From: Bdellovibrionales bacterium
GTDB taxonomy: Bacteria > Bdellovibrionota > Bdellovibrionia > Bdellovibrionales > UBA1609
Reading direction: 5' to 3'
Length of the DNA stretch: 32,000 nucleotides
NCBI GenBank assembly: GCA_963692945.1
Contig: OY843585.1
Coordinates: 1,110,001-1,142,000, forward strand
The notes below the pieces were generated by a model that ran no database searches, had not been told where the DNA came from, and saw only the letters and a list, made by a program, of their open reading frames with translations. Numbering within the stretch: the first letter of the stretch is position 1; the number at the start of each line of letters is the position of its first letter. A program made the position numbers and the translations under genes. This document shows positions 3,620-31,945 of this stretch, piece by piece.

Positions 3620-3994
3620 TTATTTTTTTGGTCTCTTAGAGCCATACTTGGAACGACCCCTCTTACGATTAACTACACCCTGCGTATCTAAAGTTCCACG
3701 AATAATATGATAACGAACACCCGGGAGATCTTTAACTTTTCCTCCACGCACTAAAACAACACTATGTTCTTGAAGATTATGTCCGATACCAGGGATATAA
3801 GCATTGGCTTCAAATCCACTAGACAATTTAACACGAGCCACTTTTCTTAAAGCGGAATTAGGTTTTTTTGGAGTTGTTGTAAAAACACGAATACAAACCC
3901 CTCTTCTTTGAGGACAATTCTTCAAAGCAGGAGATTTTGATTTTACACTAGATGAAACTCTATTTTTTCTAATAAGTTGATTAATGGTTGGCAT
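3620..3994 (-). CDS. rpsL: 30S ribosomal protein S12
   Basis: 124 aa starting [10 protein letters not shown], containing [14 protein letters not shown]. First gene of the str cluster. Confidence 0.96.
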
Positions 3995-4062
3995 ATATAT
4001 TCCTCTTTTGCATCTGCTAAAAAATAGTTTTCAAAACCCTACAAGTCAATCTCTTTCTCTCA

Positions 4063-7000
4063 TTAAGCTCTTGTATTTTGTGTGTTATCATCCTTTTTAG
4101 AATTGACACTGTCTAAAGAAGTTGATCCTCCAAAAAGTTGCACATTATCCTCTTCCTCTTCATCTTCATAAGCTAAAGGATATTGATGATAACCAGCATA
4201 ACCCGTTCCTGAAGGTATTAAACGACCCATAATAACATTTTCCTTTAATCCAACTAAATAATCGTTTTTAGATTGAACAGAAGCCTCAGTAAGTATTCTA
4301 GTTGTCTCTTGAAAGGAAGCCGCTGAAATCCAACTTTTTGTATTTAAAGATGTTTTTGTAATACCTAAAAGAAGAGGTTTAAAAACAGCCAACCGACCCC
4401 CTTCTCTAATGATCTTATTGTGTACATCCTCTAATTCACCTTTATCAACTTGCTCTCCGACAATATACGGAGTGTCTCCTGATTCTAAAATCTCTACTTT
4501 TCCTAACATCTGACGGACTATCAACTCAATGTGTTTATCGTTAATAGAAACCCCTTGCAGTCGGTAAACCTCTTGAACTTCATCAACAAGATAAGAGGCT
4601 AAAGCCTGATCTCCAGAAACATTTAAAATATCATGTGGATCACTAGGACCATCCATAAGAGATTCTCCCTTTTGAATGTACTCTCCCTCTCTAACAGCAA
4701 TGTATTTTCCTTTAGGAATCAAATACTCTTTTTGCTCTCCCTCTTTAGAAGTTACAATCACTCTTTGCTTACCTTTTAAATCTTTTCCAAAATTGATATA
4801 GCCATCAATTTCAGAAATAATAGAAGATTCTTTTGGTCTTCTCGCTTCAAAAAGTTCAGCCACACGAGGTAGTCCCCCTGTGATATCTTTTGTTTTTGTA
4901 CTTTCTTTATAAACTTTAGCAAGAGTATCCCCAGCATGTATCTCATCACCATCAGAAACCATTAACTGAGCTCCAATAGAAACAGAGTAAGCCACAGGAA
5001 CATCTCTTTCTGGAAAATTAATTGTATTCCCTTTAGAATCCACTATAGCAATCATAGCTTTTTGGTCTCCTGCTTTAGAATCTGTAAGAACTTTTGTTGT
5101 AAATCCTGTCACGGAATCAACTTGCTCAATGTAGTTCACGTCCTCTTCTATACCTTTAAATTTTACAAATCCAGAAGCATCAGAAACAATAGTGTTAGAG
5201 TAAGGATCCCATTCTGCAATGACATCTTCTTTTTTAACAGTATCGCCTTCTTTAACATTTAAAATAGCACCATAAACCAATTTAAAACTTTCTCTTTCCC
5301 GACCCGTGCTATCAAGGATAACAATATCACCACCTCTGTTCATTACTGTTAACTTTCCTTCTCTATTTTGAACAACATTTACATTTACAAATTTTATTTT
5401 TCCAGAGTAGTGAGCAACATGGACGGACTGTTCAACAGAACGAGATGCTGTTCCTCCTAAATGGAAAGTTCTCATCGTCAACTGAGTTCCAGGTTCTCCA
5501 ATAGATTGAGCTGCAATAATTCCAACCGCTTCACCAATATCTACTGTTCGGCCACGAGATAAATCCCGACCATAACATTTAACACAAATACCTTTCTTAG
5601 ACTGACAAGTTAGAGAAGATCTAATTTTTACTTTTGGAATAGCGAGGTTATCTATTTTTTTGACCATTTCTTCATCAATTTCTTCCCCAGCTTCACAAAT
5701 GATTTCATTAGAATTAAGATCTACAACTTCTTCATAAGCTGTTCTACCTAAAACTCTCTCCCCAAGAGCTTCAATCACTCCCCCACTTTCTATAAGAGGT
5801 TGCATCTCCATGTGTTTGTCCGTCCCACAATCTTGTTCAGTAACAATAACATCTTGAGAAACATCTACTAATTTACGAGTTAAATAACCTGAGTTGGCTG
5901 TTTTTAAAGCCGTATCAGCTAAACCTTTACGAGCTCCATGGGTAGAAATAAAATATTGTAAAACGGTTAATCCTTCTCTGAAATTCGCTGTAATAGGAGT
6001 TTCAATAATTTCTCCAGAAGGTTTTGCCATCAAACCACGCATACCAGCTAACTGACGAATTTGAGCTGTTGAGCTTCTTGCTCCTGAATCAGCCATAATA
6101 AAAATAGGATTAAAACTAGCCGCTTCAATTTTTTGATCATCAACAATAAAGGTTTCTTTTTCTAAATACTCCATCATTTCATCAGCCACTTTATCTGCAC
6201 AGTGAGTCCAAATATCAACAACTTTATTGTATCTTTCACCATCTGTAATTAAACCCTCATCATACTGTAAACGAATTTCATCAACTTCAGCACGAGATTC
6301 TTTTAGAAGTTCTTCTTTACGAGAAGGAATTTGTAAATCATTGATACTAATAGAGATACCTGCTTTTGTAGAATATTTAAATCCAGCGTTCATCAATTTA
6401 TCCGCTAAAACAACTGTCTTTTTTCCTCCACATAGACGAAAAGTTTTATCAATTAACTCGGCTAGAGAATTTTTATTCATCACACGATTGTAAAATGAAA
6501 ATGGAACTTCTTCAGGGACAATAGAACTTAAAAGAACTCGGCCAACAGAAGTTTTTTCTCTTTTTCCGAAAACACGACAAGTGATTTCTGCTTGAAGATC
6601 AACAGCACCTGATTCGTAAGCATAAATAACTTCTGGAATACTTCCAAAAGACTTTCCTGTTCCTTGAGCTCCAGGACGGATACGAGTCATCCAATACATT
6701 CCTAAAACAATATCTTGTGTAGGATTGATAACAGGTTGACCACTTGCAGGACTCAATATGTTATTTGTGGACATAATCAATGTTCTTGCTTCCGTTTGAG
6801 CCTCTATAGACAAAGGAACATGAACAGCCATCTGATCTCCATCAAAATCAGCATTGAAAGCTGTGCAAACAAGAGGATGCAACTGAATCGCTTTTCCTTC
6901 ATGTAAAACAGGTTCAAAAGCTTGAATACCTAATCTATGCAATGTAGGTGCTCTATTTAATAAGACAGGATGTTCTTTTACAATTTCAGAAAGAATATCC

Positions 7001-15836: not shown

Positions 15837-17096
15837 ATGTTAACAATTAAGATTGATCATAACTACAAAAACCAGTCTGTCGGATTTTTGAACTGGTCTA
15901 AAGAAAAACACAATGAACAAATAGAGGTTAAAAACTTTTTAAGCATTGGACGAGAAGCAAAAAATCTTTTGACCTTAGATGATAGCTGTATTTCTCGCCA
16001 TCATGCCAGAATTGAAAAAAAAGAAGACTCAGGTTTCTTTATTTTAAAAGATATGAATAGTCGCAACGGGGTCTTTTTAAATGGAAACCGTATTTATCAG
16101 GCTGTCCTCAGTCATAATGATAAGATTCAAATAGGAAATGTCTCATTTACTTTTTCTTATGAAAAATACAACCCTAGATGGCTATTCAACTCCAGAAGTT
16201 TCAATGAAAAATGGAATCAACAATTAAGCCGCATCCCCCACCTTGCTCAAACAGATTGTCCTATTTTAATTCTAGGTCCTTCTGGAACAGGAAAAGAAAT
16301 CGTAGCTCAAATGATTCATAAAAACTCCCATAGAAACAAAGCCCCCCTTGTAAGTGTTAATTGCAGTGCCTTGACAGAAAGTCTTGTGGAAAGTGAACTT
16401 TTTGGACATACAAAAGGAAGTTACACAGGAGCTATTAAAGATCGTAAAGGAGCTTTTATAGCTGCAACAAATGGAACTTTATTTCTAGATGAAATAGGAG
16501 ATCTTCCTTTAAATCTTCAACCTAAATTTCTTCGTGCCATTGAATATCAAGAAATCAAACCTGTAGGATCTGATAATAATTTAAAAACAAATGTTAGAGT
16601 TATTTCTGCCACTCATCAAGATTTAAAAAGTAAATCTGAAGAAAAAGAATTTAGAGAAGACCTCTATTATCGTTTAAATGTTGTCTCTATTTCTATCCCT
16701 GCTCTAAAAGATAGAATGGAAGATTTTGAACCCTTACTTCATAACTTCACTTTAAAAGAAGGAGTTGTATTCTCCACAAAAGCCATTGATATTTTAAAAA
16801 GTTATTCTTGGCCAGGAAACATTCGTGAATTAAAAAACACAGTGTCTCGTGCTAAGGCTCTTTTTAGAAATGAAGTCATAGATGAAGAAAAAACATCTTT
16901 TATTTTACATCAAGGAGAAAAAGAACAAAACACAGCTATAACTTTAAAAAAGTTAGAAAAAAAAGCAATCATCACTTCTTTAAAAAGATTTAAAGGCAAT
17001 CAAAGCAAAGCAGCTCTCACTTTAGATATTCCTAGAAGCACGCTTTATGATCGTATTCAAGAACATGGTATCAATGTGAAAGAATTTAAATTGTAG
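15837..17096 (+). CDS. Sigma-54-dependent transcriptional activator with N-terminal FHA domain
   Basis: 419 aa with an FHA signature (LSIGREAKN...SRHHARIE...NSRNGVFLNGNRI), AAA+ Walker A GPSGTGKE, Walker B LFLDEIGD, a sigma-54 contact loop variant GSYTGA, and a C-terminal Fis-type HTH (NQSKAALTLDIPRSTLYDRI). AAGGAGG lies 5 nt before the ATG. Confidence 0.92.
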   Translation: MLTIKIDHNYKNQSVGFLNWSKEKHNEQIEVKNFLSIGREAKNLLTLDDSCISRHHARIEKKEDSGFFILKDMNSRNGVFLNGNRIYQAVLSHNDKIQIGNVSFTFSYEKYNPRWLFNSRSFNEKWNQQLSRIPHLAQTDCPILILGPSGTGKEIVAQMIHKNSHRNKAPLVSVNCSALTESLVESELFGHTKGSYTGAIKDRKGAFIAATNGTLFLDEIGDLPLNLQPKFLRAIEYQEIKPVGSDNNLKTNVRVISATHQDLKSKSEEKEFREDLYYRLNVVSISIPALKDRMEDFEPLLHNFTLKEGVVFSTKAIDILKSYSWPGNIRELKNTVSRAKALFRNEVIDEEKTSFILHQGEKEQNTAITLKKLEKKAIITSLKRFKGNQSKAALTLDIPRSTLYDRIQEHGINVKEFKL

Positions 17097-17121
17097 GAGA
17101 GTGCTCTTCAAATCTCGTGAA

Positions 17122-17157
17122 AACAAACATTAAGGCTGTACAACCTTAATGTTTGTT
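17122..17157. terminator. Bidirectional stem-loop between convergent genes
   Basis: Perfect 14-bp stem AACAAACATTAAGG (17122-17135) / CCTTAATGTTTGTT (17144-17157) with an 8-nt loop. It lies between the stop of the sigma-54 activator (17096) and the stop of the 133-aa gene (17175). It is AT-rich and lacks a clean U-tract. Confidence 0.55.
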
Positions 17158-17174
17158 AATGTTTGTTTCTTTAA

Positions 17175-17576
17175 TTATAGACTTTGTTTTAAAAGCTGTT
17201 CTATTTTTGCTAGCCTTATTTTCATTTTTTTGCAGTATTTTTCAACTGCAAATAAACCTTTTCTAGCATGTGCCGTACTACCTGGAAAACGTTTGTCATT
17301 GGCGACTTTTATACTATGTTTCCAGAGACGTTTTCCTCTAATGCATCTTTCATTACTTACTGTTTTAAGATTTTTCAAATTTTGTTGCATCATCTGTATG
17401 TGAGTTCCCAATTTTTGCACTTGAGAGTTAAAAGTGATCACTAACTTTTCTCCTTCTATATCTGGTCCATGTAAACCAATACCTACACCTACATTACCTT
17501 CTGGTATTCTTCTGCTATTATTTTTAGCAAATGCAATACCACTTAAAAATGGTATTAAAATAATAAATAGTTTCAT
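17175..17576 (-). CDS. Small secreted hypothetical protein
   Basis: 133 aa with signal peptide MKLFIILIPFLSGIAFA and a basic helical C-terminus. A strong SD (AAAGGAGGAAGT) lies directly upstream of the ATG. No family recognised. Confidence 0.7.
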   Translation of the reverse strand: MKLFIILIPFLSGIAFAKNNSRRIPEGNVGVGIGLHGPDIEGEKLVITFNSQVQKLGTHIQMMQQNLKNLKTVSNERCIRGKRLWKHSIKVANDKRFPGSTAHARKGLFAVEKYCKKMKIRLAKIEQLLKQSL

Positions 17577-17618
17577 AACTTCCTCCTTTTTGTTTAGTTA
17601 TTATCATAGAAATACAAT

Positions 17619-17627
17619 GGGGGGGGG
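17619..17627. repeat. G9 (C9 on the minus strand) homopolymer tract
   Basis: aatgggggggggtaga, 43-51 nt upstream of the ATG at 17576. The same 16-mer context occurs at 30777-30792. Confidence 0.9.
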
Positions 17628-17693
17628 TAGAGTCAAACTTAAACAAAATTAAGTTGTATTTTTTTATTTAAATTTAGATATAAGTCCAGAAAG

Positions 17694-17751
17694 TTTTTTT
17701 CACTAAATCACTAGCAAAACACTGCAAAGGAGCATTGATAGCCGCTTTAAG
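17694..17751 (-). pseudogene. polA 3'-region fragment (remnant)
   Basis: By my hand alignment, 52 of 57 aligned nt are identical to polA 23222-23293, apart from one 15-nt in-frame gap. It translates to LKAAINAPLQCFASDLVKK, against polA LKAAIERAAINAPLQGSASDLVKK. No ORF surrounds it. Confidence 0.75.
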
Positions 17752-17819
17752 CAAAGTTATAGAATCTTATTTGATCTCTCATTTAAAAAGGAGGTTCTCC
17801 AAATTCACCAGATTTTTTA

Positions 17820-19211
17820 TCAATATCTTCCTTTTTTATTTTTTTTAATAATCTCCAGAAAGTTTTTTTTATTTTTGGATACAATGGATTCCATTTCTTT
17901 TTTATTCCAAATATGATTGTAAGCTTTTTTATAAGAGTTCATTTTATCTTTGATTTCAAAATCATCTGAAATTACATTTATATTTACTGAATAACTTAAT
18001 TTATTAAATTCCATTTCAAATAATAAAGTCAGATCAAAATCTTCTTCACTTGGTTTATAATTTTTATACATAACTTTTAAAATTATTTTTTTATTTATAT
18101 AATCTTCAGAAAAAGTTTCTGTATTTACAAAATCTTCAAAAGAAGAGAAAATTTGTTGTATCTCATTTGGTGGAACTTCTGTTAAAATAGGATGCCCTTC
18201 TTCTATATATAACTTTATTTTTTTAGAACAAAAAACCGTATCAAAAGTGTCAAATTTCCTATAAAGAATATTAAAAAAAGGTTTAAAAAAATTATCAAAT
18301 AAAACTTCTTTTGTATTGATATCCAGTAAAGTAATGTTTTCTTGTTCCTCTCGTATAAATTCCTCAGCTTCTTTATCCACGTCTTCAGGCTCACTTATAT
18401 CTTCACCTTTTGCAGCTTTAATACCTATTTCTAGCCATTGAATTAAAACTTGACCTATATATATAGCCAAAGCATCTACACTTCCCGTATCAGTCTTGTT
18501 TAAAGCAATAAGATAGTTTTCTCTATCACTGCTTTTAATTATTAAGGGTGGGTAGCCAAGTTTTAACAATATATAATTTAATAAAACTCTAGCAATTCTA
18601 CCATTCCCATCATCAAATGGATGAATTAAAAGAAACTCATGATGTGATTTCGCTAGAAAAGAAGAAATTGAAAGAGTTTTTTGTTCAAGCTCTTTGTTAA
18701 CCCACTTCATCAATTCTTCCATTTTTGCAGGCACTTCTTCAGGTTCGGCAAATTTAAATATTTCTCCTGTACTGGTTTTTACATGATTAGGCTGACTTTT
18801 ATATTTGCCAGGAATAATTTCTTTTTGAACTTCTATTCCATCTGATGTTTGAGCTTTTTTAAAAAATGGTTCTTTTAAAATAATCTTATTAAAATCTCTA
18901 ATATCAGCCTCTGTTAATGGGTAAGTTTCAGTTTTAGCCAATTCTTGAATTTTTTTTATAACCACATCATGAGATTTCATCTCATTGTAATTTCTTTCTA
19001 AATGACCTCCTTCCATCCTTCCAAAAATAAGAAGAAGCTCTGTTTCTCCATAAGTTAAAGTATTACCTTCTATTTTATTTGAATGGTAATTCCAATCTAA
19101 CCTGATTTTTTTATCCAATATCTCTTGATATTCTGATTTTAAAGGCTGAAATTCTTTCCACTTTTTAAACAAATCTTCAATTTTCTTATTTATTTCTTTT
19201 AATTCTTTCAT
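17820..19211 (-). CDS. Fic family protein (AMPylase-type, class II with N-terminal inhibitory motif) plus uncharacterised C-terminal domain
   Basis: 463 aa with the canonical Fic motif HPFDDGNGRIAR (aa 197-208) and the inhibitory-helix motif S-x-x-x-E-G as SNKIEG (aa 44-49). About 190 C-terminal residues have no recognisable motif. Confidence 0.9.
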   Translation of the reverse strand: MKELKEINKKIEDLFKKWKEFQPLKSEYQEILDKKIRLDWNYHSNKIEGNTLTYGETELLLIFGRMEGGHLERNYNEMKSHDVVIKKIQELAKTETYPLTEADIRDFNKIILKEPFFKKAQTSDGIEVQKEIIPGKYKSQPNHVKTSTGEIFKFAEPEEVPAKMEELMKWVNKELEQKTLSISSFLAKSHHEFLLIHPFDDGNGRIARVLLNYILLKLGYPPLIIKSSDRENYLIALNKTDTGSVDALAIYIGQVLIQWLEIGIKAAKGEDISEPEDVDKEAEEFIREEQENITLLDINTKEVLFDNFFKPFFNILYRKFDTFDTVFCSKKIKLYIEEGHPILTEVPPNEIQQIFSSFEDFVNTETFSEDYINKKIILKVMYKNYKPSEEDFDLTLLFEMEFNKLSYSVNINVISDDFEIKDKMNSYKKAYNHIWNKKEMESIVSKNKKNFLEIIKKNKKGRY

Positions 19212-19333
19212 TGTTAAATTTCCTTTTTTAAATCTCTCAAGGATATTATGTTATTCATTTATTTAATAAACTAAGTTTAATATTAGCATAAAATAAAAGA
19301 AAAATGGTAGCCATTAAATTAAAAAAATAGTTA

Positions 19334-19394
19334 TTCTTCTCCTTGTTGCGATGAAAAGCTCGTGAAAATAAAAATTCACACACTAGAGTTTTGT
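19334..19394. repeat. Partial copy of the MITE-like element (one end)
   Basis: ctcgtgaaaataaaa...ctagagttttgt matches the reverse complement of the left end of the 22853-23024 element. The terminal CTAGAGTTTTGT (19383-19394) abuts the stop codon of the HEAT-like gene. Confidence 0.6.
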
Positions 19395-21691
19395 TATTGA
19401 AATAAAAAATATTTTTTATGGGTTTTATGTGAAAGATTACGCACTTCAATATTCGTATCTTTCATACCCTGTTCTAAAAGCAAAAGAGCTTCTTCTTTCA
19501 TATCCGCTTCTATCAATTCATACATTTGATGTATAACAAACTCACGGACAACTGTATTTTCATCTTTCATACCTTGTTTCAAGAAGAAAAAAGCCTCTTC
19601 TCTCATATCTGCGTTTATCAATTCATACGTTTTCTTAATAACAGCATACCGTACGTACCGATTTTTATCTTGCAGACCTTGTTTCAATAAGAAAAAAACC
19701 TCTCCCTTCATATCTGCACTTATCAATTCATAAGTTTGATATATAACGGCCTGACGTACATCTTTACTCTCATCTTCCAGACCTTGTTTCAATAAGAAGA
19801 AAACCTCTTCCCTCATATCTGCGTTTATCAATTCATAGGTTTGATACATAATGAGTTGACGAACACCCTCATCCTCATCTTGCAGACCTTGTTTTAATAA
19901 GAAAAAAACCTCTTCTTTCATATCTGCGTTTATCAATTCATCCATTTGATATATAACAGCATGACGTACAACTCTATTCTTATCTTGAAGACCTTGTTTT
20001 AATAATGAAAAAAAATCCTCTTTCATTCCCACTTTTATCAATTCATACACTTTCTGAATAACAGTCTGACGTACATAGACATTCTCATCTTGCAGACCTT
20101 GTTTTAAAAACGAAAGAGCCTCTTCTTTCATTCCCATTTTTATCAATCCATACGTTTGATATATAACGGCCTGACGTACATCTTTACTCTCATCTTCCAG
20201 ACCTTGTTTTAAAAACGAAAGAGCCTCTTCTTTCATTCCCATTTTTATCAATCCATACGTTTGATACATAACGGCCTGACGTATATCTTCATCCTCATCT
20301 TGCAGACTTTGTTTTAATAAGAAAAAAACCTCTTCTTTCATATCTGCGTTTATCAATTCATCGGCTTGATATATAACTTCTAAATTCACACTTTTATTCT
20401 CATCTTGCAGACCTTGTTTTAAAAAGGAAAAAGCCTCTTCTTTCATTCCTACTTTTATCAATTTACCCATCTGATACATAACAGCCTGACGTACATCTTC
20501 ACTCTCATCTTCCAGACCTTGTTTTAATAATGAAAGAGTTTCTTCTTTCATTCCTACTTTTATCAATTCATCGGCTTGATATATAACAACCTGACGTACA
20601 CCTTCATCCTCATCTTTCAAACCTTGTTTTAATAAGAAAAAAGATTCTTCTTTCATTCCCATTTTTATCAATTCAGATACTTTCTTAATAACAACCTGAC
20701 GAATATTTTCATTCTCATCTTTCAGACCTTGTTTTAAAAAGGAAAAAATCTTTTCTCTCGTTCCTGCTTCTATCAATCTATCCATCTGATATATAACAGC
20801 CTCACGTACACCCTCGTCCTTATCTTTCATTCCTTGTTCTAAAAACGAAAGAGCTTCTTCTTCCATTCCTACTTTTATCAATTCAGATGTTTTCTTAATA
20901 ACAGCCTGACGAATACTTTCATCCTCATCTTTCAGACCTTGTTTTAATAAGAAAAAAGATTCTTCTTTCATTCCTACTTCTATCAATTTATCCATTCTCT
21001 TAATAACAGCCTGACGTACATTTTTATTTTTATCTTTTAGACCTTGTTCTAAAAACGAAAGAGCCTCTTCTTTCATGTCTGCTTCTATCAATTTATCCGT
21101 TTGATACATAACAGCCTGACGTACATTTTTATTTTTATCTTTTAGACCTTGTTCTAAAAATAAAAGAGCTTCTTCTTTCATTCCTACTTCTATCAATTTA
21201 TCCGTTTGATGTATAACAGCTTGACGAACATCCTCGTCCTTATCTTTCATTCCTTGTTCTAAAAACGAAAAAGATTCTTCTTTCATGTCTGCTTCTATCA
21301 ATTCATCCGTTTGATACATAACAGCCTGACGTACCCCCTCGTCCTTATCTTTCATTCCTTGTTCTAAAAACGAAAAAGATTCTTCTTTCATGTCTGCTTC
21401 TATCAACTCATCCGTTTGATACATAACAGCCTGACGTACATATACATTCTCATCTTTCATTCCTTGTTTTAAAAGTGAAAGAGCTTTTTCTTTCCTATTT
21501 GTTTTTATCAATTCATCCGTTTTTTTAACAATAGCTAAATGTATATCTTCATGCTCGCTTTTCACACCTTGATTTAAATGAGGGTTTGTAGCATAAGATT
21601 CTACAGCATAAATTAAAAAACTTATAAGACAGGAGTAAGAAAGAATGAAACAAACTTTCAAAATAAAACTTTTAAAACCACTTAAAATCAT
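19394..21691 (-). CDS. Secreted or membrane-anchored protein of ~20 tandem 35-aa HEAT-like (PBS-lyase-type) repeats
   Basis: 765 aa with a hydrophobic N-terminus (FILKVCFILSYSCLISFLIYAVESYA). It then carries 20 units of consensus VRQAVMYQTDELIEADMKEEaFsFLkQGLKDedeg. The L-KD-D--VR-A signature is that of HEAT-like repeats. Confidence 0.85.
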   Translation of the reverse strand: MILSGFKSFILKVCFILSYSCLISFLIYAVESYATNPHLNQGVKSEHEDIHLAIVKKTDELIKTNRKEKALSLLKQGMKDENVYVRQAVMYQTDELIEADMKEESFSFLEQGMKDKDEGVRQAVMYQTDELIEADMKEESFSFLEQGMKDKDEDVRQAVIHQTDKLIEVGMKEEALLFLEQGLKDKNKNVRQAVMYQTDKLIEADMKEEALSFLEQGLKDKNKNVRQAVIKRMDKLIEVGMKEESFFLLKQGLKDEDESIRQAVIKKTSELIKVGMEEEALSFLEQGMKDKDEGVREAVIYQMDRLIEAGTREKIFSFLKQGLKDENENIRQVVIKKVSELIKMGMKEESFFLLKQGLKDEDEGVRQVVIYQADELIKVGMKEETLSLLKQGLEDESEDVRQAVMYQMGKLIKVGMKEEAFSFLKQGLQDENKSVNLEVIYQADELINADMKEEVFFLLKQSLQDEDEDIRQAVMYQTYGLIKMGMKEEALSFLKQGLEDESKDVRQAVIYQTYGLIKMGMKEEALSFLKQGLQDENVYVRQTVIQKVYELIKVGMKEDFFSLLKQGLQDKNRVVRHAVIYQMDELINADMKEEVFFLLKQGLQDEDEGVRQLIMYQTYELINADMREEVFFLLKQGLEDESKDVRQAVIYQTYELISADMKGEVFFLLKQGLQDKNRYVRYAVIKKTYELINADMREEAFFFLKQGMKDENTVVREFVIHQMYELIEADMKEEALLLLEQGMKDTNIEVRNLSHKTHKKYFLFQ
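19397..21538. repeat. Intragenic 105-bp tandem repeat array (~20 units)
   Basis: Exact 105-nt period; for example, gcttctatca recurs at 21291 and 21396. Adjacent units such as 21241-21345 and 21346-21450 are nearly identical at the DNA level. Confidence 0.92.
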
Positions 21692-21856
21692 ATCTTTGTT
21701 TCTAATAAATCTAGAAATGCCTTTTTACAAGCTAAAATCAAGTGATATGTAAAACTTTCACAGTGATTTTGTTAATCATGCTAGATTATCAACTTTTAAC
21801 TCAATGCTAGAACTTTCAATAAATGAACTGAGGTTTTCCCTAATGAACTAGGGCTA

Positions 21857-22198
21857 CCGTAGTTTTTCTATATGCGAAAAACCGTAGAACAAAATTCTAT
21901 ATGCGAAAACCAGTAGGTTTTCTCTAGGAATACCCCTCCTTGTTTTCTGAACTTGAAGATCTTAACCCATATGCGAAAACCAGTAGGTTTTCTCTATCTG
22001 CGAAAACCAGCAGTTTTTCTCTATGTTTAAATCTTTTATTTTAACAAGATTTGAAGAACAAAGCCCCTCATGCAAAAACCGTAGTTTTTCTCTAGGAATA
22101 CCTTTTTACTTTTTGAGGTTGAAGAGTATCCCCTCCTACGATGAAAGCTCAAAAAGTAAAAAGGGAAGGACTAGAGTTTTGTAAATTAAGAGTTTTGT
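21857..22198. repeat. Composite/nested cluster of MITE-like element modules
   Basis: Four copies of the small-hairpin module (A)TGCGAAAACCAGTAG(G/T)TTTTCTCTA lie at 21901-21926, 21971-21996, 21999-23 and 22070-94. The cluster also has one truncated and one complete long hairpin (22101-22164), a degenerate left terminus ACAAAATTCTAT (21889-21900), and a right terminus CTAGAGTTTTGT (22171-22182) followed by a second partial terminus (22188-22198). Confidence 0.75.
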
Positions 22199-22389: not shown

Positions 22390-22845
22390 ATGATGAACGC
22401 CAATGCTTTAGAACAAAATGAAATTCTTTTTGAAATAAAAAAATTATCTACACAAATGCAAACATTAGACTCAAAAATAGATACAAAAGTAGATAATCTA
22501 GATTCAAAGATAGAAAATCTAGATTCAAAGATAGAAAACCTAGATTCAAAGATAGATAATCTAGATTCAAAGATAGATACAAAGGTAGATGGATTATCTT
22601 CAAGAATAGATAGATTGGATGAAAAGATGGTTGATTTAAATATAAGGGTAGATAAATTAGATACAAAAGTAGATACAAGAATAGATAAATTAGATGAAAA
22701 AGTAGAGGGTCTTAAAACCGATCATGCTGAACTTAGTGCAAGTGTGGTTAGTATAAAGTCTCATCAAAAAGTTTCTACATGGGTTATTACTTTGCTTCTC
22801 CCTATATTTACGGTTATTACTATTGCAGCCATTAAATATGTTTAA
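22390..22845 (+). CDS. Tail-anchored coiled-coil protein with heptad/hendecad repeats
   Basis: 151 aa with GGGAGA 6 nt before the ATG. It has canonical heptads (I-E-N-L-D-S-K) and a single C-terminal TM segment (WVITLLLPIFTVITIAAI). The architecture resembles XhlA-type small coiled-coil membrane proteins, but no sequence-level assignment is possible. Confidence 0.7.
   Translation: MMNANALEQNEILFEIKKLSTQMQTLDSKIDTKVDNLDSKIENLDSKIENLDSKIDNLDSKIDTKVDGLSSRIDRLDEKMVDLNIRVDKLDTKVDTRIDKLDEKVEGLKTDHAELSASVVSIKSHQKVSTWVITLLLPIFTVITIAAIKYV
22498..22581 (+). repeat. 21-bp in-frame tandem repeat (4 units) inside the coiled-coil gene
   Basis: ctagattcaaagatagaaaat starts at 22498, 22519, 22540 and 22561. 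It encodes LDSKIEN/LDSKIDN. Confidence 0.92.
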
Positions 22846-22852
22846 ATCCTAA

Positions 22853-23024
22853 ACAAAACTCTAGTTCAAAACTTTTATTTTCACGAGATTTGAAGAACAA
22901 AGCCCCTCATGCGAAAAACAGAAGTTTTTCTCTAGGAATACCCCTCCTTGTTTTCTGAACTTGAAGAGTGTCCCTCTTACGATGAAAGGTCAGAAAATAA
23001 GGAGGGGAAGAACGAGAGTTTTGT
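22853..23024 (+). mobile_element. MITE-like non-autonomous element (172 bp)
   Basis: Terminal inverted repeats ACAAAACTCTAG (22853-22864) and CGAGAGTTTTGT (23013-23024) match at 11/12 positions. Both ends are flanked by TAA (22850-52 and 23025-27). The interior carries one small-hairpin module (22909-22934) and an 18-bp-stem hairpin (22941-22958 / 22990-23007). There is no ORF. Confidence 0.65.
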
Positions 23025-25561
23025 TAATGAGCTTCATTCCAACTACTTCCAATAGCGAGATTGATTTTTAAAGGAACTTTAAGTTTTACACAATTTTCCA
23101 TAATAGAAATAATCTCTTGAGATTCAAGCTCTATACAATCCTCTGGACATTCAAAAAGCAATTCATCATGAACTTGAGACAATAAAGGTATAGGCAAACT
23201 TTCATCTAGTTGAATCATCGCTTTTTTCACCAAATCACTAGCAGAACCTTGTAAAGGAGCATTGATGGCTGCTCTTTCTATAGCCGCTTTAAGTCTAGGG
23301 TTTTTAAATTCTGACTTATCAAAAAATCGTTTCCTACCAAAAAGCGTTTCCACATATCCTTTTTTAAAAGACTCCTCTTTTGTGGTTTCAATATAATCTT
23401 TTATTTTTTTAAATTTCTTAAAATAATTGTTAATAATATCTCTCGCTTCTTGCCTAGAAACCCCTAAAGCCTCTGCCAAACCATAAACTCCTTGCCCATA
23501 GGCAATTCCAAAATTGACGGCTTTACTTTTTCTCCTTAAATCCACTGTAACATCTTTTAAAGGAATATTAAAAACTTCACTCGCTGTTGCAGAATGAATA
23601 TCTAAATCATTTTCAAAAGCTTTTATAAGCCCAGGGTCTTTTGTGATATGAGCTAAAATTCTTAACTCTATTTGAGAGTAATCAGCAGAAATGATTTTAC
23701 TTCCTTGAGGAGCAATAAAACATTCACGAATTTGACGGCCTCTTTCTGTCCGAATAGGAATATTTTGTAAATTAGGATTCACACTGGAAAGCCTTCCTGT
23801 AGAAGTGGCTGTCTGGCGAAATTGCGTATGGATTCTTTTGGATTTTGGATTCACAAGAGATAAAAGGCTATCCGTATAAGTTGTTTTCAATTTAAAAAGT
23901 TCACGATGCTCAATAATAAAAGGCAAGCTCACATGAAGATCTTTCATCTTAATCAACTCATGGCTGTCTGTAGAATAACCTGATTTTGTTTTTCTGCCTT
24001 TTGGTAATTTTAATTTCTCAAATAAAATAACAGATAATTGTTTAGGACTGGAGATATTAAACTCTTCACCTATAAGATTAAAAATCTTCTTCTCTCTATT
24101 TTTTATATCTACTTCTAATTTTTTAGATTGCCTTTCAACCTCTTCAACATCTAACAATAAACCTCGTTTTTCCATATGATATAAAACAGAAATAGTGGGA
24201 AGCTCTATCTCTTTCAAAACAGATTCTAAATTGGATTTTTTTAATTGAGTTTCTAAATTTGAACGTAACAACTGATGAAATTTATAAAGATCATCAACAC
24301 TGCTGGAATCTTCTAAAGTGGATTTTAAATACAAGTAACATAAATTCTTGAAAGATTTAGAAGTTTTAGAGTCCAACAAATGTCCTGCAACCATAGCATC
24401 CCATTCCGCTATAGGCTTTACACAATCTAATTTTTTCCATGAAGATTTTAAATTGTAACCACAGTAACGAACCCATTTCTCATCTAAAATCTTTCCCACA
24501 TCTTTATAGTCCGAAGGTTCTAATAAAGTGATTCTCTTTTTAAAAGCCAAATACATATGATCTTCTTGAGACCCTAACCAAAGACTTGCATAAGGTTCTA
24601 GTTGTTCTAAAAACTCTTCTTTTTTAATAAGACCTTTAGATTTATGAGCTGGCTTAGAAACCGGCTGAGTCTTTTTTTGTTCTGATGAGGATTTATTTGG
24701 AAAAAACACATTTCTAAAAGATTTAAAACTTAATTTTTCTAAAAAATCTTTCAATTGTTTTTGATCCTGCTCTGAAAACTGATGGGGAAGCTCAAGAGCA
24801 GCCTCTTTAAGAGATAAATCTATTTTCATATCTGTTTTTAACTGAATAAGTTCTTGAGATAAATAAGCGTCCTCTTCTCCATCTATCAATTTCTTTTGAG
24901 CAGAACCTGAAATATGTTTTATATTTTTATAAATCTTTTTAAGAGTTCCATATTTTTCTAATAAAGTAGTAGCTCCCTTAGGACCAATACCACGAACACC
25001 AGGAATATTATCACTTGAATCTCCAATAAGAGATAAATAATCTAACATTTGATCGGGAAACACTCCCCATTTATTTTTAACTCCTTGAGTGTCGTAAATG
25101 ATATCTTTCATGGTGTCGTATAAAAAAGTATTTTTATCAACCAACTGAGCAAAATCTTTATCACCACTTATAATATAAGTATTCAGTTTCTTTTTTCTCC
25201 CAAGCAAAGCTAAAGTGCCAATAATATCATCAGCTTCAAAACCAGGTTTTTCAATATAAGGAATTTTTAAAACATCCATCATCATTTTAAGGTATGGCAC
25301 TTGTTGTTCTAAATCTTCAGGCATCTCTCCACGATTGGCTTTATAATCTGGATAAATCTCCTTACGAAAAGAAGCCTTTTTACTATCAAAGCAACTGATT
25401 AAATAATCTGGTGATTGCTCCTTTGTTAACTTATGTAACATTTTAAAAACACCATAGAGGGCATTGGTAGGCTCTCCTTTCTCATTTTTCATATGCAAAG
25501 AAATGGCATAATAGGAACGAAAGAATAAAGAACTAATATCAATTAAATAAAGTTTTTTCAT
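23024..25561 (-). CDS. polA: DNA polymerase I (5' nuclease plus polymerase; 3'-5' exonuclease residues apparently absent)
   Basis: 845 aa with a 5'-nuclease N-terminus and family-A motifs DYSQIELR (A), RRKSKAVNFGIAYG (B) and QVHDELLFE (C). Confidence 0.95.
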   Translation of the reverse strand: MKKLYLIDISSLFFRSYYAISLHMKNEKGEPTNALYGVFKMLHKLTKEQSPDYLISCFDSKKASFRKEIYPDYKANRGEMPEDLEQQVPYLKMMMDVLKIPYIEKPGFEADDIIGTLALLGRKKKLNTYIISGDKDFAQLVDKNTFLYDTMKDIIYDTQGVKNKWGVFPDQMLDYLSLIGDSSDNIPGVRGIGPKGATTLLEKYGTLKKIYKNIKHISGSAQKKLIDGEEDAYLSQELIQLKTDMKIDLSLKEAALELPHQFSEQDQKQLKDFLEKLSFKSFRNVFFPNKSSSEQKKTQPVSKPAHKSKGLIKKEEFLEQLEPYASLWLGSQEDHMYLAFKKRITLLEPSDYKDVGKILDEKWVRYCGYNLKSSWKKLDCVKPIAEWDAMVAGHLLDSKTSKSFKNLCYLYLKSTLEDSSSVDDLYKFHQLLRSNLETQLKKSNLESVLKEIELPTISVLYHMEKRGLLLDVEEVERQSKKLEVDIKNREKKIFNLIGEEFNISSPKQLSVILFEKLKLPKGRKTKSGYSTDSHELIKMKDLHVSLPFIIEHRELFKLKTTYTDSLLSLVNPKSKRIHTQFRQTATSTGRLSSVNPNLQNIPIRTERGRQIRECFIAPQGSKIISADYSQIELRILAHITKDPGLIKAFENDLDIHSATASEVFNIPLKDVTVDLRRKSKAVNFGIAYGQGVYGLAEALGVSRQEARDIINNYFKKFKKIKDYIETTKEESFKKGYVETLFGRKRFFDKSEFKNPRLKAAIERAAINAPLQGSASDLVKKAMIQLDESLPIPLLSQVHDELLFECPEDCIELESQEIISIMENCVKLKVPLKINLAIGSSWNEAH

Positions 25562-27852: not shown

Positions 27853-27966
27853 ACAACCTCTGATTGATATTTTTTAAATACAATACCTTATAAAACAATA
27901 GAATTTAGGATTTTTCCACTAAAATATTTAATTTAAGAAGTTGGAGAATTCTCAAAAGCAATGAAT

Positions 27967-28015
27967 GTGAAAAACTGGAGTTTTTCTCTAAAAGTCATGT
28001 GCAAAAACCTGTAGA
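27967..28015. repeat. Extra small-hairpin modules adjacent to the 28016-28239 element
   Basis: The variants gtgaaaaactggagtttttctcta (27967-27990) and atgtgcaaaaacctgtagaac lie just outside the left terminal repeat. Confidence 0.5.
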
Positions 28016-28239
28016 ACAAAACTCTAGAAATACCCCTCTGCGAAAACCAGAGTTGCGAAAACCAGTAGTTTTTCTCTATGTTAAAACTTTCATTTTCACG
28101 AGATTTGAAGAACAAAACCCCTCATGCGAAAACCAGTAGTTTTTCTCTAGGAATATCCCTCCTTGTTTTCTGAACTTGAAGAGCGTCCCTTTTACGATGA
28201 AAGGTCAGAAAACAAGGAGGGGAAGAACTAGAGTTTTGT
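28016..28239 (+). mobile_element. MITE-like non-autonomous element (224 bp)
   Basis: Perfect 12-bp terminal inverted repeats ACAAAACTCTAG (28016-28027) and CTAGAGTTTTGT (28228-28239). Both ends are flanked by AGA (28013-15 and 28240-42). The interior has small-hairpin modules at 28054-28078 and 28124-28149 and a 17-bp-stem hairpin (28157-28173 / 28205-28221). The right terminus supplies the last codons and the stop of the 881-aa ORF. Confidence 0.7.
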
Positions 28240-30873
28240 AGATAATCTTTCAAGACGATCCACTCTTTTGATAAGTGAGTTTAGATTCTCTTTAAGAGAT
28301 GTATTTTCTTTTTTCAAAGAAGTGAGTTCTCTTTCTAGTTTTTTATTTGTAGATGCTAATTTCTTTTCTGTTTGAAGTTGTGTCTGTTTTAGTTTTGTGA
28401 TTTCTTTTGTGGTGGCTTTTACATCATCTGAAGTTTGTTTAAGTTTAATTTTTGTTTCTTCAATTTGACTTTGGTTCGCTCCCAACTCTTTTTTAAAAGT
28501 TAAAAACTCTGTTTGAAAAGTCTCTTTTAAATCAGATAGTGATTTTGTAAGAGCCGATACAGACTCCTTAAGAAAGTTTAGAGTTTTTGTTGTGGAGTTA
28601 TAAAACTCTTTAAAAGCTTTTATGATAACAGGAATAAGCCCTTGATAGTTCAAACTTAAAGTCTTTTTTGGATCTGAACCTTCAGACACTAACTCGGGAT
28701 ATTCTTTTTGAACCTCTTGAGCAATTAAACCTATCTGTTTTGTTTGAACTCTATGTTTGTCTTTCCAGTAAAAAGTTTTTGGGTTTAATTTTAAAAGAGA
28801 ATGGGTTTGATTTTTTAAATCCTTAATCTTGGTTTTGAGTCTTCGGTCTGATGGTGATAATGGTGCTGCTGGACTACCAAAAGAAGCAGAAGCCCCAGAG
28901 GTATTCAAGGTGAAATAATCTGTACTAGATGATGGTGATGATTTTTTAACCCTTAAATTGCCCTCTACAATTAAATCCCTTCTAATAGTGACATCATAAG
29001 CACTTAACATACCATTATCAATAGTGACATCTCTATTAATACTAGAACTTATCCCATTACTAACAGTGAAACGACCTTGGCCATATCCATTATTTTGATT
29101 ACGACCACCAATACGGAGTTCTCGATCTACTATTAAAGTTCCTCCATCTGATCCTCCACCTGTGTAGTTAACATTCCCGACTCTTAAATTACTGTGATTA
29201 ATCAGAATTTCTTTATGATTTTTGTCCATATTTCCCATGATTATATTTCCAATATTGAGCCTCTTACCACCAGAGTTAGGCTGCAAATTATTACCTATTA
29301 CAATATTATTACTTGTATTGTAAGATTTACCTGCGTGATCGCCTATATAGATATTATTACTTCCAGTTGTATTTCCCCATGAGCTACCATGTGTTCCTGT
29401 CTGCGTGCCTATAAAAATATTACTACTTCCTGTGGTGTTTCGTTTACCAGATTCATAACCTATAAAAACATTTCTACCAGAAGAGTAATTAGATTTTGTT
29501 CCTGCTTGAAAACCTACAAAAGTATTTTTAGATCCCATAAAAGTCCCATCTCCATATCCGGCTCCATGACCTATATAAGTATTACCACCATGACCACTCT
29601 GTCCACCTCCTCCTGCGTATGCACCTACATAGGTGTTGTTATGTCTATTAAGTTCAAGTTTACCAGCTTCAAAACCTATAAAAACATTATTAGACCCTTG
29701 ACGTAATCTGTGTCCTGCTTGAGATCCGATGATAGTGTTTTTGTGGTTTCCTGTTCCTAATGATGAAAAAGCACTAACGGTAGCATAACCAATGTAAGTA
29801 TTATTTTCTCCCGTGGTGTTTGTACCTGCTTGATAACCCACAAAAGTATTATTTGAATCTGATATATTTGCACGACCCGCTTTATAACCCACAAAAGTAT
29901 TCCCTGCCCCTGAACCTGTTGTTGATTTCCCCGCTTCAAAACCAAAAGCCGTGTGATGATTTACACTTACCTCTGTTGTATCTCCACAACCCACAAGACT
30001 TAACTCGCTAGGAGATTCTGTCACTTTATAACAATCTGGATCTCCACTACCTCCGCCTCCACCAACAACTACATCACCACAAACATCTTTTGCATAAGTT
30101 AAAGGGGTTGTATCTGCTATGATTAACTCTACCACTTCTTCCACCTTTGTTTTTCTGGTTGCATGAGTAGTAGCTGGTAAAGCATCTATCTGTGTCTGTA
30201 TATTTGTAGGAAGACCAGACTTCCCATCTGCTTTATCAATAATTTCTTCATAAAACAGAGAACAGCATTGAGAATCTTTCACTGAAATCTTAAAATCCCA
30301 ATCTGTTGGAGGGTTTGTTGGAGTAGTTCCTGTTCCTTTTAAGTGAATGATTTTTGGTCTTTCACTTGCTGGCGTGGTGGTTGCACACTCTGGCAACTCT
30401 GGGTCTGTTGTTGCTGTGCAATCTCTAGATACAAATTCAAAACCTGAAGGTTTAGTTTTGATATTATCATTTAAAACTTTCAAACATTTTTTATTATCAT
30501 CTGTATTTGTTGAATCATCTTCATTTGCAAATTTATTTAAAAGAGATTGAATCTGAATCACCTTCCAAAGCTCCGTGTTAGAATCTTTTATTTTTTTTTG
30601 AGAAGTAGATTGTTGCATGATAGATGTCCCAACCCCTAAAATAACGATAGCCCCTATTGCCGATGCAATAACAACACTAACAAGAGCAGAACCTTTTTGA
30701 TTTAAATAAGAAAGCTTATTGTTTTTTAAAAGAAAGGAAAGCTTGTGAAAAAAAAGAAATTTACACTTTAAAAGTAAATGGGGGGGGGTAGAAAGGTTTT
30801 TTAGAAAATAAAAAAGCAAATTTTTAAAATAAAAAAAGAAACTTCTACCTCTAGATTTAAAGGATTTTTTCAT
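28228..30873 (-). CDS. Chimeric fibre protein: pilin/PilX_N-like N-terminal helix, Gly-rich tail-fibre repeats, peptidase S74 intramolecular chaperone domain, coiled-coil tail
   Basis: 881 aa. Residues 58-86 are NQKG/SALVSVVIASAIGAIVILGVGTSIM. Residues ~306-548 carry repeated NTFVGYxAG-type units. Residues 675-~765 are SDRRLKTKIKDL...IGLIAQEVQKEYPELV...LNYQGLIPVIIKAF, which is S74-like. Residues ~766-881 are heptad coiled coil. The start is uncertain, because the first 57 residues are low-complexity F/L/K-rich and there is no SD. Confidence 0.8.
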   Translation of the reverse strand: MKKSFKSRGRSFFFYFKNLLFYFLKNLSTPPHLLLKCKFLFFHKLSFLLKNNKLSYLNQKGSALVSVVIASAIGAIVILGVGTSIMQQSTSQKKIKDSNTELWKVIQIQSLLNKFANEDDSTNTDDNKKCLKVLNDNIKTKPSGFEFVSRDCTATTDPELPECATTTPASERPKIIHLKGTGTTPTNPPTDWDFKISVKDSQCCSLFYEEIIDKADGKSGLPTNIQTQIDALPATTHATRKTKVEEVVELIIADTTPLTYAKDVCGDVVVGGGGGSGDPDCYKVTESPSELSLVGCGDTTEVSVNHHTAFGFEAGKSTTGSGAGNTFVGYKAGRANISDSNNTFVGYQAGTNTTGENNTYIGYATVSAFSSLGTGNHKNTIIGSQAGHRLRQGSNNVFIGFEAGKLELNRHNNTYVGAYAGGGGQSGHGGNTYIGHGAGYGDGTFMGSKNTFVGFQAGTKSNYSSGRNVFIGYESGKRNTTGSSNIFIGTQTGTHGSSWGNTTGSNNIYIGDHAGKSYNTSNNIVIGNNLQPNSGGKRLNIGNIIMGNMDKNHKEILINHSNLRVGNVNYTGGGSDGGTLIVDRELRIGGRNQNNGYGQGRFTVSNGISSSINRDVTIDNGMLSAYDVTIRRDLIVEGNLRVKKSSPSSSTDYFTLNTSGASASFGSPAAPLSPSDRRLKTKIKDLKNQTHSLLKLNPKTFYWKDKHRVQTKQIGLIAQEVQKEYPELVSEGSDPKKTLSLNYQGLIPVIIKAFKEFYNSTTKTLNFLKESVSALTKSLSDLKETFQTEFLTFKKELGANQSQIEETKIKLKQTSDDVKATTKEITKLKQTQLQTEKKLASTNKKLERELTSLKKENTSLKENLNSLIKRVDRLERLSTKL
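30780..30788. repeat. G9 (C9 on the coding strand) homopolymer tract inside the 5' end of the fibre ORF
   Basis: aatgggggggggtaga encodes S-T-P-P-H (TCT ACC CCC CCC CAT) at codons 28-32 of the 881-aa ORF. Confidence 0.9.
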
Positions 30874-30983: not shown

Positions 30984-31442
30984 TTAACTACAAACTTGAG
31001 CTGCACAGGTTCCTGTCATACTCGTTCCTTTTTTTGAATTATCTGTTAACTTTCCTGTGCTATCAATACAGAATTTTAAGGGTTCGGCCTGACTTGTAGA
31101 ACTGAAACCTAAGGTTGTGTAGTCACCACCAGTTCCTACCATGTATAAACACCATTTTGTAGAATCAGAAGCATTAAAAGAAAATGTGGGCTTAGCAAAT
31201 TTACTTTTATCTTCAAAAGTCATTCTCTCCCATGCTGTATCCACAGGATTTGAATGTTCAAAATTACGAGACATTTCATATTTTTGATAAAACTCTAGAA
31301 ACATATCCTTTACCATTCCTGACTTGGCACTGTTTTTTATATTGTTATAACTGACTATTGCGACACTAGAGAGAACCCCTAGGATTGAAACAACCACAAG
31401 CAACTCTATCAAACTAAAACCTTTTCTATTTTTTTCACACAT
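30984..31442 (-). CDS. Type IV pilin (prepilin-type N-terminal cleavage/methylation domain)
   Basis: The class III signal MCEKNRKG/FSLIELLVVVSILGVL has Phe+1 and Glu+5. C-terminal Cys residues are present (FCIDS...GTCAAQVCS). The track ORF begins 11 codons earlier (31475) and overlaps the upstream pilin. The ATG at 31442 gives a normal 8-aa leader. Confidence 0.88.
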   Translation of the reverse strand: MCEKNRKGFSLIELLVVVSILGVLSSVAIVSYNNIKNSAKSGMVKDMFLEFYQKYEMSRNFEHSNPVDTAWERMTFEDKSKFAKPTFSFNASDSTKWCLYMVGTGGDYTTLGFSSTSQAEPLKFCIDSTGKLTDNSKKGTSMTGTCAAQVCS

Positions 31443-31459
31443 AAAACACTTCCAAGCTT

Positions 31460-31945
31460 TTACTGACATCCACATGAAGAACTACTACAAGTCCCTTTGA
31501 TTGTAGGAGAGGTTTTTTCACTATTGTCCGTAAATTTATTTTCGGAATCCATACAAAAATTTATTGCCTCTTTAGTATTACCGTTATAACCAAATTTTTG
31601 ATACTCTTTGTGGGCATTAGTTCCAGTACCAGTGTTTGCAGTTAGGGCCTGACACCATTTTTTAGGATGAGCAGAACAATTTTTAACAATAGCAGATTTA
31701 GTAAAATATTTTTTATCGTTAGATCGGAGACTATCCCATGCTGTCTGCCAAGGATTTGTTTCTCCTAGATTTTGATCCACAAAGATAGATTGATGATAAG
31801 ATTTAAATAGCAGTTGAAGTGTATTTACCTTTCCGTCTCTCACATATTCTTGAAAGGAACTAATACTAAATGCCCCTAAGATTCCTATAATTACAACCAC
31901 TGTAAGTAGTTCTATTAAACTAAAACCTTTTATATCTTTATACAC
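31460..31945 (-). CDS. Type IV pilin (prepilin-type N-terminal cleavage/methylation domain)
   Basis: Leader MYKDIKG/FSLIELLTVVVIIGILG, with a GTG start directly after an in-frame TAA. It is a paralogue of the downstream pilin (shared NP..TAW, KWC, FC.DS..K.TDNS.K..GTC) and has a Cys-rich C-terminus GTCSSSSCGCQ. Confidence 0.88.
   Translation of the reverse strand: MYKDIKGFSLIELLTVVVIIGILGAFSISSFQEYVRDGKVNTLQLLFKSYHQSIFVDQNLGETNPWQTAWDSLRSNDKKYFTKSAIVKNCSAHPKKWCQALTANTGTGTNAHKEYQKFGYNGNTKEAINFCMDSENKFTDNSEKTSPTIKGTCSSSSCGCQ

Follow-up and report, generated by a model that had tools for sequence, protein, structure and literature searches.

The locus studied here raises the question of what kind of repeat fills the gaps between its genes and whether that repeat moves. 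The window, i.e., the whole 32,000-nucleotide stretch of DNA that was analysed, had a GC content of 32%; its genes include polA, an enolase gene and the secE-nusG-rplKAJL-rpoBC-rpsLG-fusA block. When compared with GTDB species genomes, polA was closest to Bdellovibrionota MAGs, at 42-57% identity. A first-pass annotation of this DNA had proposed an undescribed MITE-like family with 12-bp terminal inverted repeats and 3-bp target duplications. Our analysis showed that the repeats are real and that they form a family of hairpin-forming modular elements filling gaps between variable genes of a small AT-rich Bdellovibrio-like genome; they are probably selfish and mobile. The family is previously unrecorded, and its general type, that of the modular BOX-like repeats, is already known (see below).

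The 12-mer ACAAAACTCTAG occurred exactly five times in the window and in none of 100 dinucleotide-preserving shuffles. Three large copies, named A, B and C (Table 1), were clearly related: identity to A was 92.8% for B (166 aligned nt) and 83% for C (168 nt), and an HMM built from the three recovered all of them (E 1e-49 to 1e-58) and picked up fragments too. The copies measured between 172 and about 350 bp and had no ORF in common. The copies known so far correspond to five sites inside 11 kb of the one 32-kb window plus the locus of one relative, named L045. The sequences and coordinates first assigned to the copies matched the window, with two adjustments besides the left end of B (see below): the cluster at 21857-22198, described as nested or composite, is indeed composite (copy C) but begins at about 21843, and of two reported end fragments the one at 19334-19394 was retained, whereas 17103-17123 proved too short for fragment E.

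Table 1. Positions of the repeat copies, their modules and the island genes, counted from the first nucleotide of the window
Feature	Position	Strand	Description
Exact ACAAAACTCTAG	19383	-	
Exact ACAAAACTCTAG	22171	-	
Exact ACAAAACTCTAG	22853	+	
Exact ACAAAACTCTAG	28016	+	
Exact ACAAAACTCTAG	28228	-	
Copy A	22853-23024	+	short form, 172 bp
A, left 12-mer	22853-22864		
A, M1	22865-22909		
A, H1	22910-22934		
A, H2	22930-23018		
H2 conserved middle	22966-22989	+	TTGAAGAG ... CCC ... CGATGAAAG
A, right 12-mer	23013-23024		
Copy B	27960-28239	+	long form
B, H1	27966-27991		
B, H1'	28000-28027		
B, partial H1	28039-28053		
B, H1	28054-28079		
B, M1	28080-28124		
B, H1	28125-28149		
B, H2	28145-28233		
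B, right 12-mer	28228-28239		
Copy C	21843-22198	+	long composite
C, H1-like	about 21852		
C, H1'	21873-21900		
C, H1	21902		
C, truncated H2	21922-21959		5' arm
C, H1	21972		
C, H1	21999		
C, M1	22025-22070		
C, H1	22071		
C, H2	22090-22176		co-varied stem
C, right 12-mer	22171-22182		
C, solo second terminus	22187-22198		TAAGAGTTTTGT
Fragment D	19334-19394	+	loop and 3' arm of hairpin unit, then right 12-mer
Fragment E	17090-17127 (approx.)	-	5' arm and loop of hairpin unit (TTTGTTTTCACGAGATTTGAAGAGCACTCTCCTACAAT)
Island ORF	17175-17576		unannotated
Island Fic gene	17820-19211	-	
Island HEAT-repeat gene	19394-21691		765 aa; about 20 tandem 105-bp/35-aa units
Island coiled-coil gene	22390-22845	+	151 aa; 21-bp repeats

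The elements were mosaics of three modules, H1, M1 and H2. H1 (TGCGAAAACCAGTAGTTTTTCTCTA) is a small hairpin of 25 nt whose number varied per element: one in A; three full, one partial and one variant (H1') in B; and four full and one H1' in C, together with a weaker H1-like stretch. Of the 11 pattern matches in total, eight are the full copies aligned by nhmmer, two are H1' variants and one is a partial copy. M1 is a half-hairpin (..TTTTCACGAGATTTGAAGAACAAAGCCCCTCA), and H2 is a long hairpin of 89 nt (CTCTAGGAATACCCCTCCTTGTTTTCTGAACTT ... AAGGTCAGAAAACAAGGAGGGGAAGAACTAGAG) followed by TTTTGT. The left part of the element consists of ACAAAACTCTAG plus M1; on the other side H2 ends sharply in CTAGAGTTTTGT, and the right ends of the elements read GAGTTTTGT. 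M1, fragment E and the middle of H2 aligned with one another, and the M1 arm TTTTATTTTCACGAG has its complement in the 3' arm of D (CTCGTGAAAATAAAA); the modules thus correspond to diverged copies of one ancestral hairpin unit. Half units, solo termini and differing module numbers were all present among the copies.

Some arrangements of these units deserve a separate description. The terminal 9-mer TAAGAGTTTTGT of C was repeated solo 4 nt past its right end (22183-22198), and this solo terminus may be the remnant of an earlier copy; L045 presented a doubled TTTTGA end similar to it. Fragments E (5' arm and loop) and D (loop and 3' arm) belonged to the same hairpin subtype, with arms TTTGTTTTCACGAG / CTCGTGAAAATAAAA and CTCCT kept in both; an inversion of 17128-19333, which contains the Fic gene, may have separated what was once a single unit. 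Directly adjoining E, between the sigma-54 activator gene and the first ORF of the island described below, was a terminator-like hairpin with a perfect 14-bp stem (17122-17157; AACAAACATTAAGG CTGTACAA CCTTAATGTTTGTT).

The ends of A were ACAAAACTCTAG and CGAGAGTTTTGT, with one mismatch. The right end was sharp in four copies, which shared ...GAGTTTTGT and then diverged into TAAT, AGAT, AAAT and TATT; the right flanks of these four copies were unrelated. To the left of the 12-mer, B and C were homologous up to the junction CC(T)GTAGA|ACAAAA (60 nt compared; shuffle p 0.0035), and in the full alignment their homology started at about 27960 in B and 21843 in C, about 56 and 46 nt further left than the 12-mer, respectively. 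The left 12-mer is therefore internal in B and C, as the homology runs 42 nt or more leftward: it corresponds to the 3' half of H1' (TGCAAAAACCTGTAGAACAAAACTCTAG at 28000 and TGCGAAAAACCGTAGAACAAAATTCTAT at 21873), and the H1' of B includes the stretch 28016-28027 previously taken as its left terminal repeat. The left 12-mer of A aligned, in turn, with the 3' half of the internal H1 (GTTTTTCTCTA) of B and C. Only the right end was a consistent boundary, and the module number varied, so a fixed-length unit bounded by 12-bp terminal inverted repeats is not supported; what stands of these repeats is the pair in A, with its one mismatch, and the right ends in four copies.

The 3-bp flanks were TAA/TAA in A and AGA/AGA in B (three of three positions identical in each), AGA/AAA in C and TTT/GTT in the L045 copy (two of three). 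By rough estimates, the chance of a 3-bp match at this base composition was about 0.022, and the naive chance of full flank identity in two of three copies about 0.0015. Note that the left AGA of B is repeat sequence and not target, given the B/C homology left of the 12-mer, and is not independent evidence. A 3-bp target duplication is thus suggestive rather than established, with a clean match only in A. No pair of empty and filled sites at nucleotide resolution was found among the relatives' loci examined. The link to IS5/IS1031/Harbinger-like systems, which had been drawn from the 3-bp duplication alone, is not supported either: the duplications of IS5/IS1031 or PIF-Harbinger are of the TNA/TWA type, which is represented by TAA only in A, and AGA does not fit. 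The lesson is that a 3-bp match at two copies is insufficient to call a target duplication.

These ends bear on the strictest version of the MITE proposal, in which 12-bp terminal inverted repeats (ACAAAACTCTAG / CTAGAGTTTTGT) would be recognized by a DDE transposase (IS5/IS1031 or Harbinger-like) encoded elsewhere that makes 3-bp duplications, B and C being such units adjoining other repeats. We consider it unlikely. The identical flanks of A and B (with those of C one base off), the sharp right end, the closure of A and B by paired 12-mers when folded at minimum energy, and a native polA stop that makes an insertion exactly at TAA coherent (see below for both) are all as this explanation predicts. 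However, the homology of B and C beyond the 12-mer means that AGA was not a target, the left 12-mer of A is the counterpart of an internal H1 half in B and C, the copy in L045 has flanks TTT/GTT and different closing repeats, and TAA is common beside stop codons at 32% GC. Correia/NEMIS elements of Neisseria and the RUP of pneumococcus are units of uniform length with defined terminal inverted repeats on either side; they show TA duplications, and their partner IS family is known. The elements described here resemble such classical MITEs in being small, non-coding, multi-copy, closed by inverted repeats and placed next to gene ends or across them, where they can change the gene termini, but differ from them in their variable left boundary; besides, neither the window nor the relatives' loci yielded a partner IS, a transposase or a longer element with these 12-mers at its ends. 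A strict MITE is a possible model for the short form A, and B, C and the L045 copy do not support it.

Comparison with three relatives (L044, L045 and L051, whose polA genes were 84, 82 and 72% identical, respectively) located the copies in variable DNA. In all three, polA and the sigma-54 activator gene were direct neighbours in convergent orientation, separated by 34, 51 and 6 bp, and the segment 17097-23023 therefore represents a lineage-specific insertion of 5.9 kb. Element copies occupied four gaps of this island: E at the left border (in reverse orientation), followed by the ORF 17175-17576 and the Fic gene; D between the Fic and HEAT genes; C between the HEAT and coiled-coil genes; and A at the right border. 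Copy B sat at a second synteny break, upstream of a conserved gene of 238 aa. The base composition of the island (28-33% GC) was not clearly foreign, and no Fic homologue closer than 60% identity was found in the protein database, so that no donor island was identified. The same database held a polA entry 100% identical to that of the window, yet its best Fic match was at 60%; the Fic gene seems to be uncalled in, or omitted from, the protein records of the source genome.

At the equivalent intergenic regions of L044, L045 and L051, neither nhmmer nor a covariance model found the element. Over the relatives' loci, nhmmer with the full unit found, outside the window, only one diverged copy, placed at a non-orthologous site of L045 (4014-4156, E 4e-11), which ends beside the 3' end of a tRNA-Ser. 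It is closed by a 12-bp inverted repeat without mismatch, CCTCACTCAAAA/TTTTGAGTGAGG, whose sequence is unlike that in the window. The comparison of orthologous loci, put forward in the first-pass annotation as a way to tell mobile from ancestral sequence, thus gave absence in three relatives and a diverged copy elsewhere in one of them, which fits mobility; in this broad sense "MITE-like" is a fitting term. The surroundings of the L045 copy were described too. A weak partial element in reverse orientation (1354-1432, negative strand; 66% identity, E 1.8e-4, small database) lies just after a tRNA-Val, and a full copy (3978-4182, positive strand) lies just past the tRNA-Ser on the other strand. 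The pair brackets about 2.8 kb with four ORFs that matched no Pfam or PHROG family; as in the window, orphan genes lie between convergent gene ends with an inverted copy of the element on each side.

Searches in wider databases returned nothing related. Rfam 15 gave no match at gathering score and, with permissive settings, only sub-threshold generic hairpin matches to miRNA-precursor models. The H1+H2 junction, searched as an exact pattern, was absent from GTDB species genomes and JGI metagenomes; pattern scans of viral contigs (IMG/VR) gave nothing or chance coding matches; BLAST against plasmids and phages gave no element match; and a six-frame peptide search with the concatenated elements found nothing, not even spurious ORF calls. 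The loop-motif pattern matched five times in JGI metagenomes, all of them by chance inside GC-rich coding DNA. Applied to the window together with 20 Bdellovibrionota loci (391 kb in all), an H2 covariance model found only its four training copies. No transposase, integrase or HUH/Y1 protein was detected in L045 or, by Pfam search, in the window ORFs from 15.8 to 32 kb; the genes at 1-15.5 kb were assigned to ribosomal and RNA polymerase functions by synteny with annotated relatives only. With this coverage, we agree with the original remark that the window holds no transposase. A full-text literature search suggested that no small structured repeats appear recorded in Bdellovibrio-like predators. 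Taken with the copies and their folds (see below), these null searches bear out an undescribed, multi-copy, non-coding intergenic family closed by inverted repeats.

The contact between termini and gene ends had been described as strikingly regular. The stop codons of polA (23024-23026) and of the HEAT gene (19394-19396) each overlap a right terminus by 1 nt, and the stop of the coiled-coil gene lies 7 nt before A, which fills 172 of the 178 bp between that gene and polA. The C-terminus of polA (...EAH, then stop) was at the same position in all relatives, and read NEAH in the window and the two closest ones, so TAA 23024-23026 is the native polA stop. The spacers at the same place in the relatives were of 6-51 bp; with such tiny spacers in a compact genome, any insertion must abut a stop, and this explains why the elements are flush with stop codons. 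The overlaps and the 7-nt gap are therefore correct as described, and their regularity is largely a consequence of genome compactness.

In other cases the repeat reaches into the gene itself. The 881-aa gene reads four codons into the right 12-mer of B, to a TAG at 28228-28230, and the TAG of the sigma-54 activator gene falls in the loop of fragment E. The tail length of the activator varied among relatives (ending in KEFKL, FKRS and FKDSSKLSP before the stop), so that its truncation by the element is possible. For annotation purposes, this means that the C-terminal codons of the 881-aa fibre gene and the stop codon of the activator derive from repeat sequence. A CTCTAG "attachment core" in the relatives' activator tail was considered and judged a coding-sequence coincidence.

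The 881-aa protein itself (28228-30873, negative strand) carried a Peptidase_S74 (endosialidase chaperone) domain, had phage tail-fibre matches and resembles fibre adhesins known from predatory Bdellovibrio. Two pilin-like genes with N-terminal methylation motifs lay upstream, also on the negative strand (30984-31945), and this fibre/pilin-like block occupies the place of different genes in each relative. At the other side of the window, a 47-bp tandem repeat (832-1026; 4.1 copies, 88% matches) begins in the last codons of fusA, its first unit encoding the C-terminus of EF-G (...QKFLL) and the stop codon; no tuf gene follows fusA in the window. Each 47-bp unit carries a GAAAAACAGAAATTTTT hairpin, H1-like in look, but its similarity to H1 was not significant (E 3.2).

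The whole of A folded with its two 12-mers as closing helix at -64.4 kcal/mol (z -6.9; z -6.1 on the other strand and -7.8 when folded as DNA), and the 12-mers also paired as closing helix in the minimum-energy fold of B. The four positive-strand H2 hairpins had z values of -5 to -7.4. In all four, the RNA fold was better on the positive than on the negative strand, by up to 8.7 kcal/mol (-38.2 and -34.3 kcal/mol in A, -41.0 and -37.2 in B, -33.7 and -33.3 in C-right, and -28.0 and -19.3 in L045), indicating G.U pairs on the positive strand. Compensatory changes affected 7 of 28 stem pairs among A, B, C-right and L045; while the stem co-varied, the motif in the middle of H2 was invariant in the four copies, i.e., in two species. 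By inspection, this motif can form 5'-GAAGAG-3' / 5'-CGAUGA-3', with two tandem G.A/A.G mismatches around an A-U pair, and it could be a putative protein-binding site. Readings of the conserved loop as a hammerhead ribozyme or a K-turn were discarded by eye, because the core nucleotides and bulge size do not fit. The structural features of these four copies fit either a role as RNA or single-strand DNA or the mere constraint of arm likeness in an inverted-repeat element; the conserved motif and the better positive-strand fold could alternatively reflect a host-selected RNA or a single-strand DNA site recognized by an enzyme.

A host-selected RNA would be a hairpin plus UUUUGU serving as a terminator-like or stabilising 3' structure, or a small RNA, kept by selection and duplicated rather than transposed. 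Stem co-variation around an invariant internal motif in two species, the better positive-strand fold in four of four hairpins, the T-run after the hairpin and the position of A directly after the positive-strand coiled-coil gene are consistent with it. A precedent for terminator-like repeats exists in the pneumococcal SPRITE, which has a long stem, a T/U-rich tail and short "TIRs" AAAA/TTTT, and whose target duplication was unresolved for want of empty sites (PMC3049150). The likeness lies in the long stem duplex followed by a T-rich tail and in the ends (ACAAAA...TTTTGT here, AAAA/TTTT there); the difference is that SPRITE is a single hairpin unit, whereas the elements of the window are modular mosaics in which the T-tract is only TTTTGT. 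A Rho-independent terminator would have a GC-rich stem, a short loop and, right after it, a run of at least five T; the tail of H2 is TTTTGT, and a terminator scan reported no H2 hairpin site; it flagged two short negative-strand stems, at 22070-22052 in C and 28052-28036 in B. Moreover, only one of the five copies (A) has a co-oriented upstream gene, the others lying antisense to their adjoining genes; some copies are truncated, composite or half units; orthologous sites in the relatives lack the element, and no Rfam family matches it; and inverted-repeat elements co-vary without any RNA role too. A host function of this kind is, in our view, improbable.

If the hairpins were instead read as single-strand DNA, they would be sites for a recombinase or HUH enzyme, in the manner of attC or REP/RAYT, that mark cassette joints and mediated the gain of the 5.9-kb island; to this we give little credence. 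The copies in four gaps of an island absent in three relatives, B at the second synteny break, the inverted copies (one of them partial) that in L045 flank a 2.8-kb block of orphan ORFs lying between the 3' ends of two tRNAs, and a structure conserved above sequence of which one strand folds better would all follow from it. But the 243-bp gap between the ORF 17175-17576 and the Fic gene (17577-17819) has no element, the left border E is a truncated half unit rather than a terminus, the L045 partial copy is weak (see above), and repeats commonly pile up in variable regions without causing them. REPs are units of 20-40 nt with a GTAG/CTAC head and an associated RAYT gene, and attC sites have R and L boxes and an integrase. 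Our elements share with REP/BIME and attC the imperfect palindromes in mosaics, a structure kept above sequence, a strand-biased fold and an association with variable genes. They differ from REP/BIME in having hairpins of 25 and 89 nt without a GTAG/CTAC head, and from attC in that they lack its core motifs, their ends ACAAAAC/GTTTTGT being unlike RYYYAAC/GTTRRRY (by inspection), and in that the island genes are not co-oriented but lie on both strands. No integrase, RAYT or HUH gene was present among the window ORFs searched, nor in L045.

Composite structures of another type, the IS231-derived MICs of Bacillus cereus, consist of passenger genes without transposase bracketed by inverted copies of a short repeat. 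The transposase-free genes of the island are likewise bracketed by inverted copies of a short repeat; unlike in MICs, the left border is a truncated half unit and no duplication flanks the island. The most far-reaching proposal in this line is that H2 (UUGAAGAG opposite CGAUGAAAG, with tandem G.A pairs and a strand-biased fold) is the site of a hairpin-specific enzyme that places small gene cassettes just where convergent genes and tRNAs have their 3' ends, so that the 5.9-kb island and the 2.8-kb tRNA-Val/tRNA-Ser block of L045 would be its products, i.e., those of a new cassette-acquisition system, and would not be regions that passively collect junk repeats; we think it very unlikely. If true, such a cassette system would be a new route of gene gain, for which the present evidence is thin.

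The design of the elements is closest to that of BOX, a modular, hairpin-forming repeat of Streptococcus pneumoniae with the structure boxA-boxB(n)-boxC and a length of 67-637 bp (PMC3049150). In both, the middle module (H1 and boxB, respectively) varies in number and stands between end modules that pair to close the structure, the length is variable (172 to about 350 bp here), the location is intergenic, hairpins are extensive and no gene is encoded. The correspondence is one of design, i.e., pairing end modules plus a variable middle module, without homology to boxA, boxB or boxC: the two have no sequence similarity, belong to unrelated phyla and differ in that the modules described here are mutual paralogues. 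The explanation that we prefer, with a probability of roughly 0.55, is accordingly that of lineage-restricted, non-coding, modular hairpin repeats, selfish and non-autonomous (MITEs in the broad sense), with the pneumococcal BOX as the nearest design.

For the elements of this family we propose the following course. Copies would have inserted into the very short spacers of a compact genome, where a transposase acting in trans or a single-strand hairpin enzyme might have copied them. The motifs that they share, CTCTAG and the conserved loop, would then have let them recombine, duplicate and lose parts, yielding long, short, half and solo forms. As the spacers are tiny, the elements would sometimes supply stop codons to the adjacent genes. 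Where co-transcribed, they would add large stable hairpins to neighbouring transcripts, and the positive-strand hairpins followed by UUUUGU would give these a terminator-like look.

Few components of bacterial genomes are as poorly catalogued as small structured repeats. The family described here shows that, in a compact genome of 1.56 Mb, such repeats can form nearly all the DNA between genes in variable regions, can provide genes with stop codons and can mark where recently acquired genes are joined.
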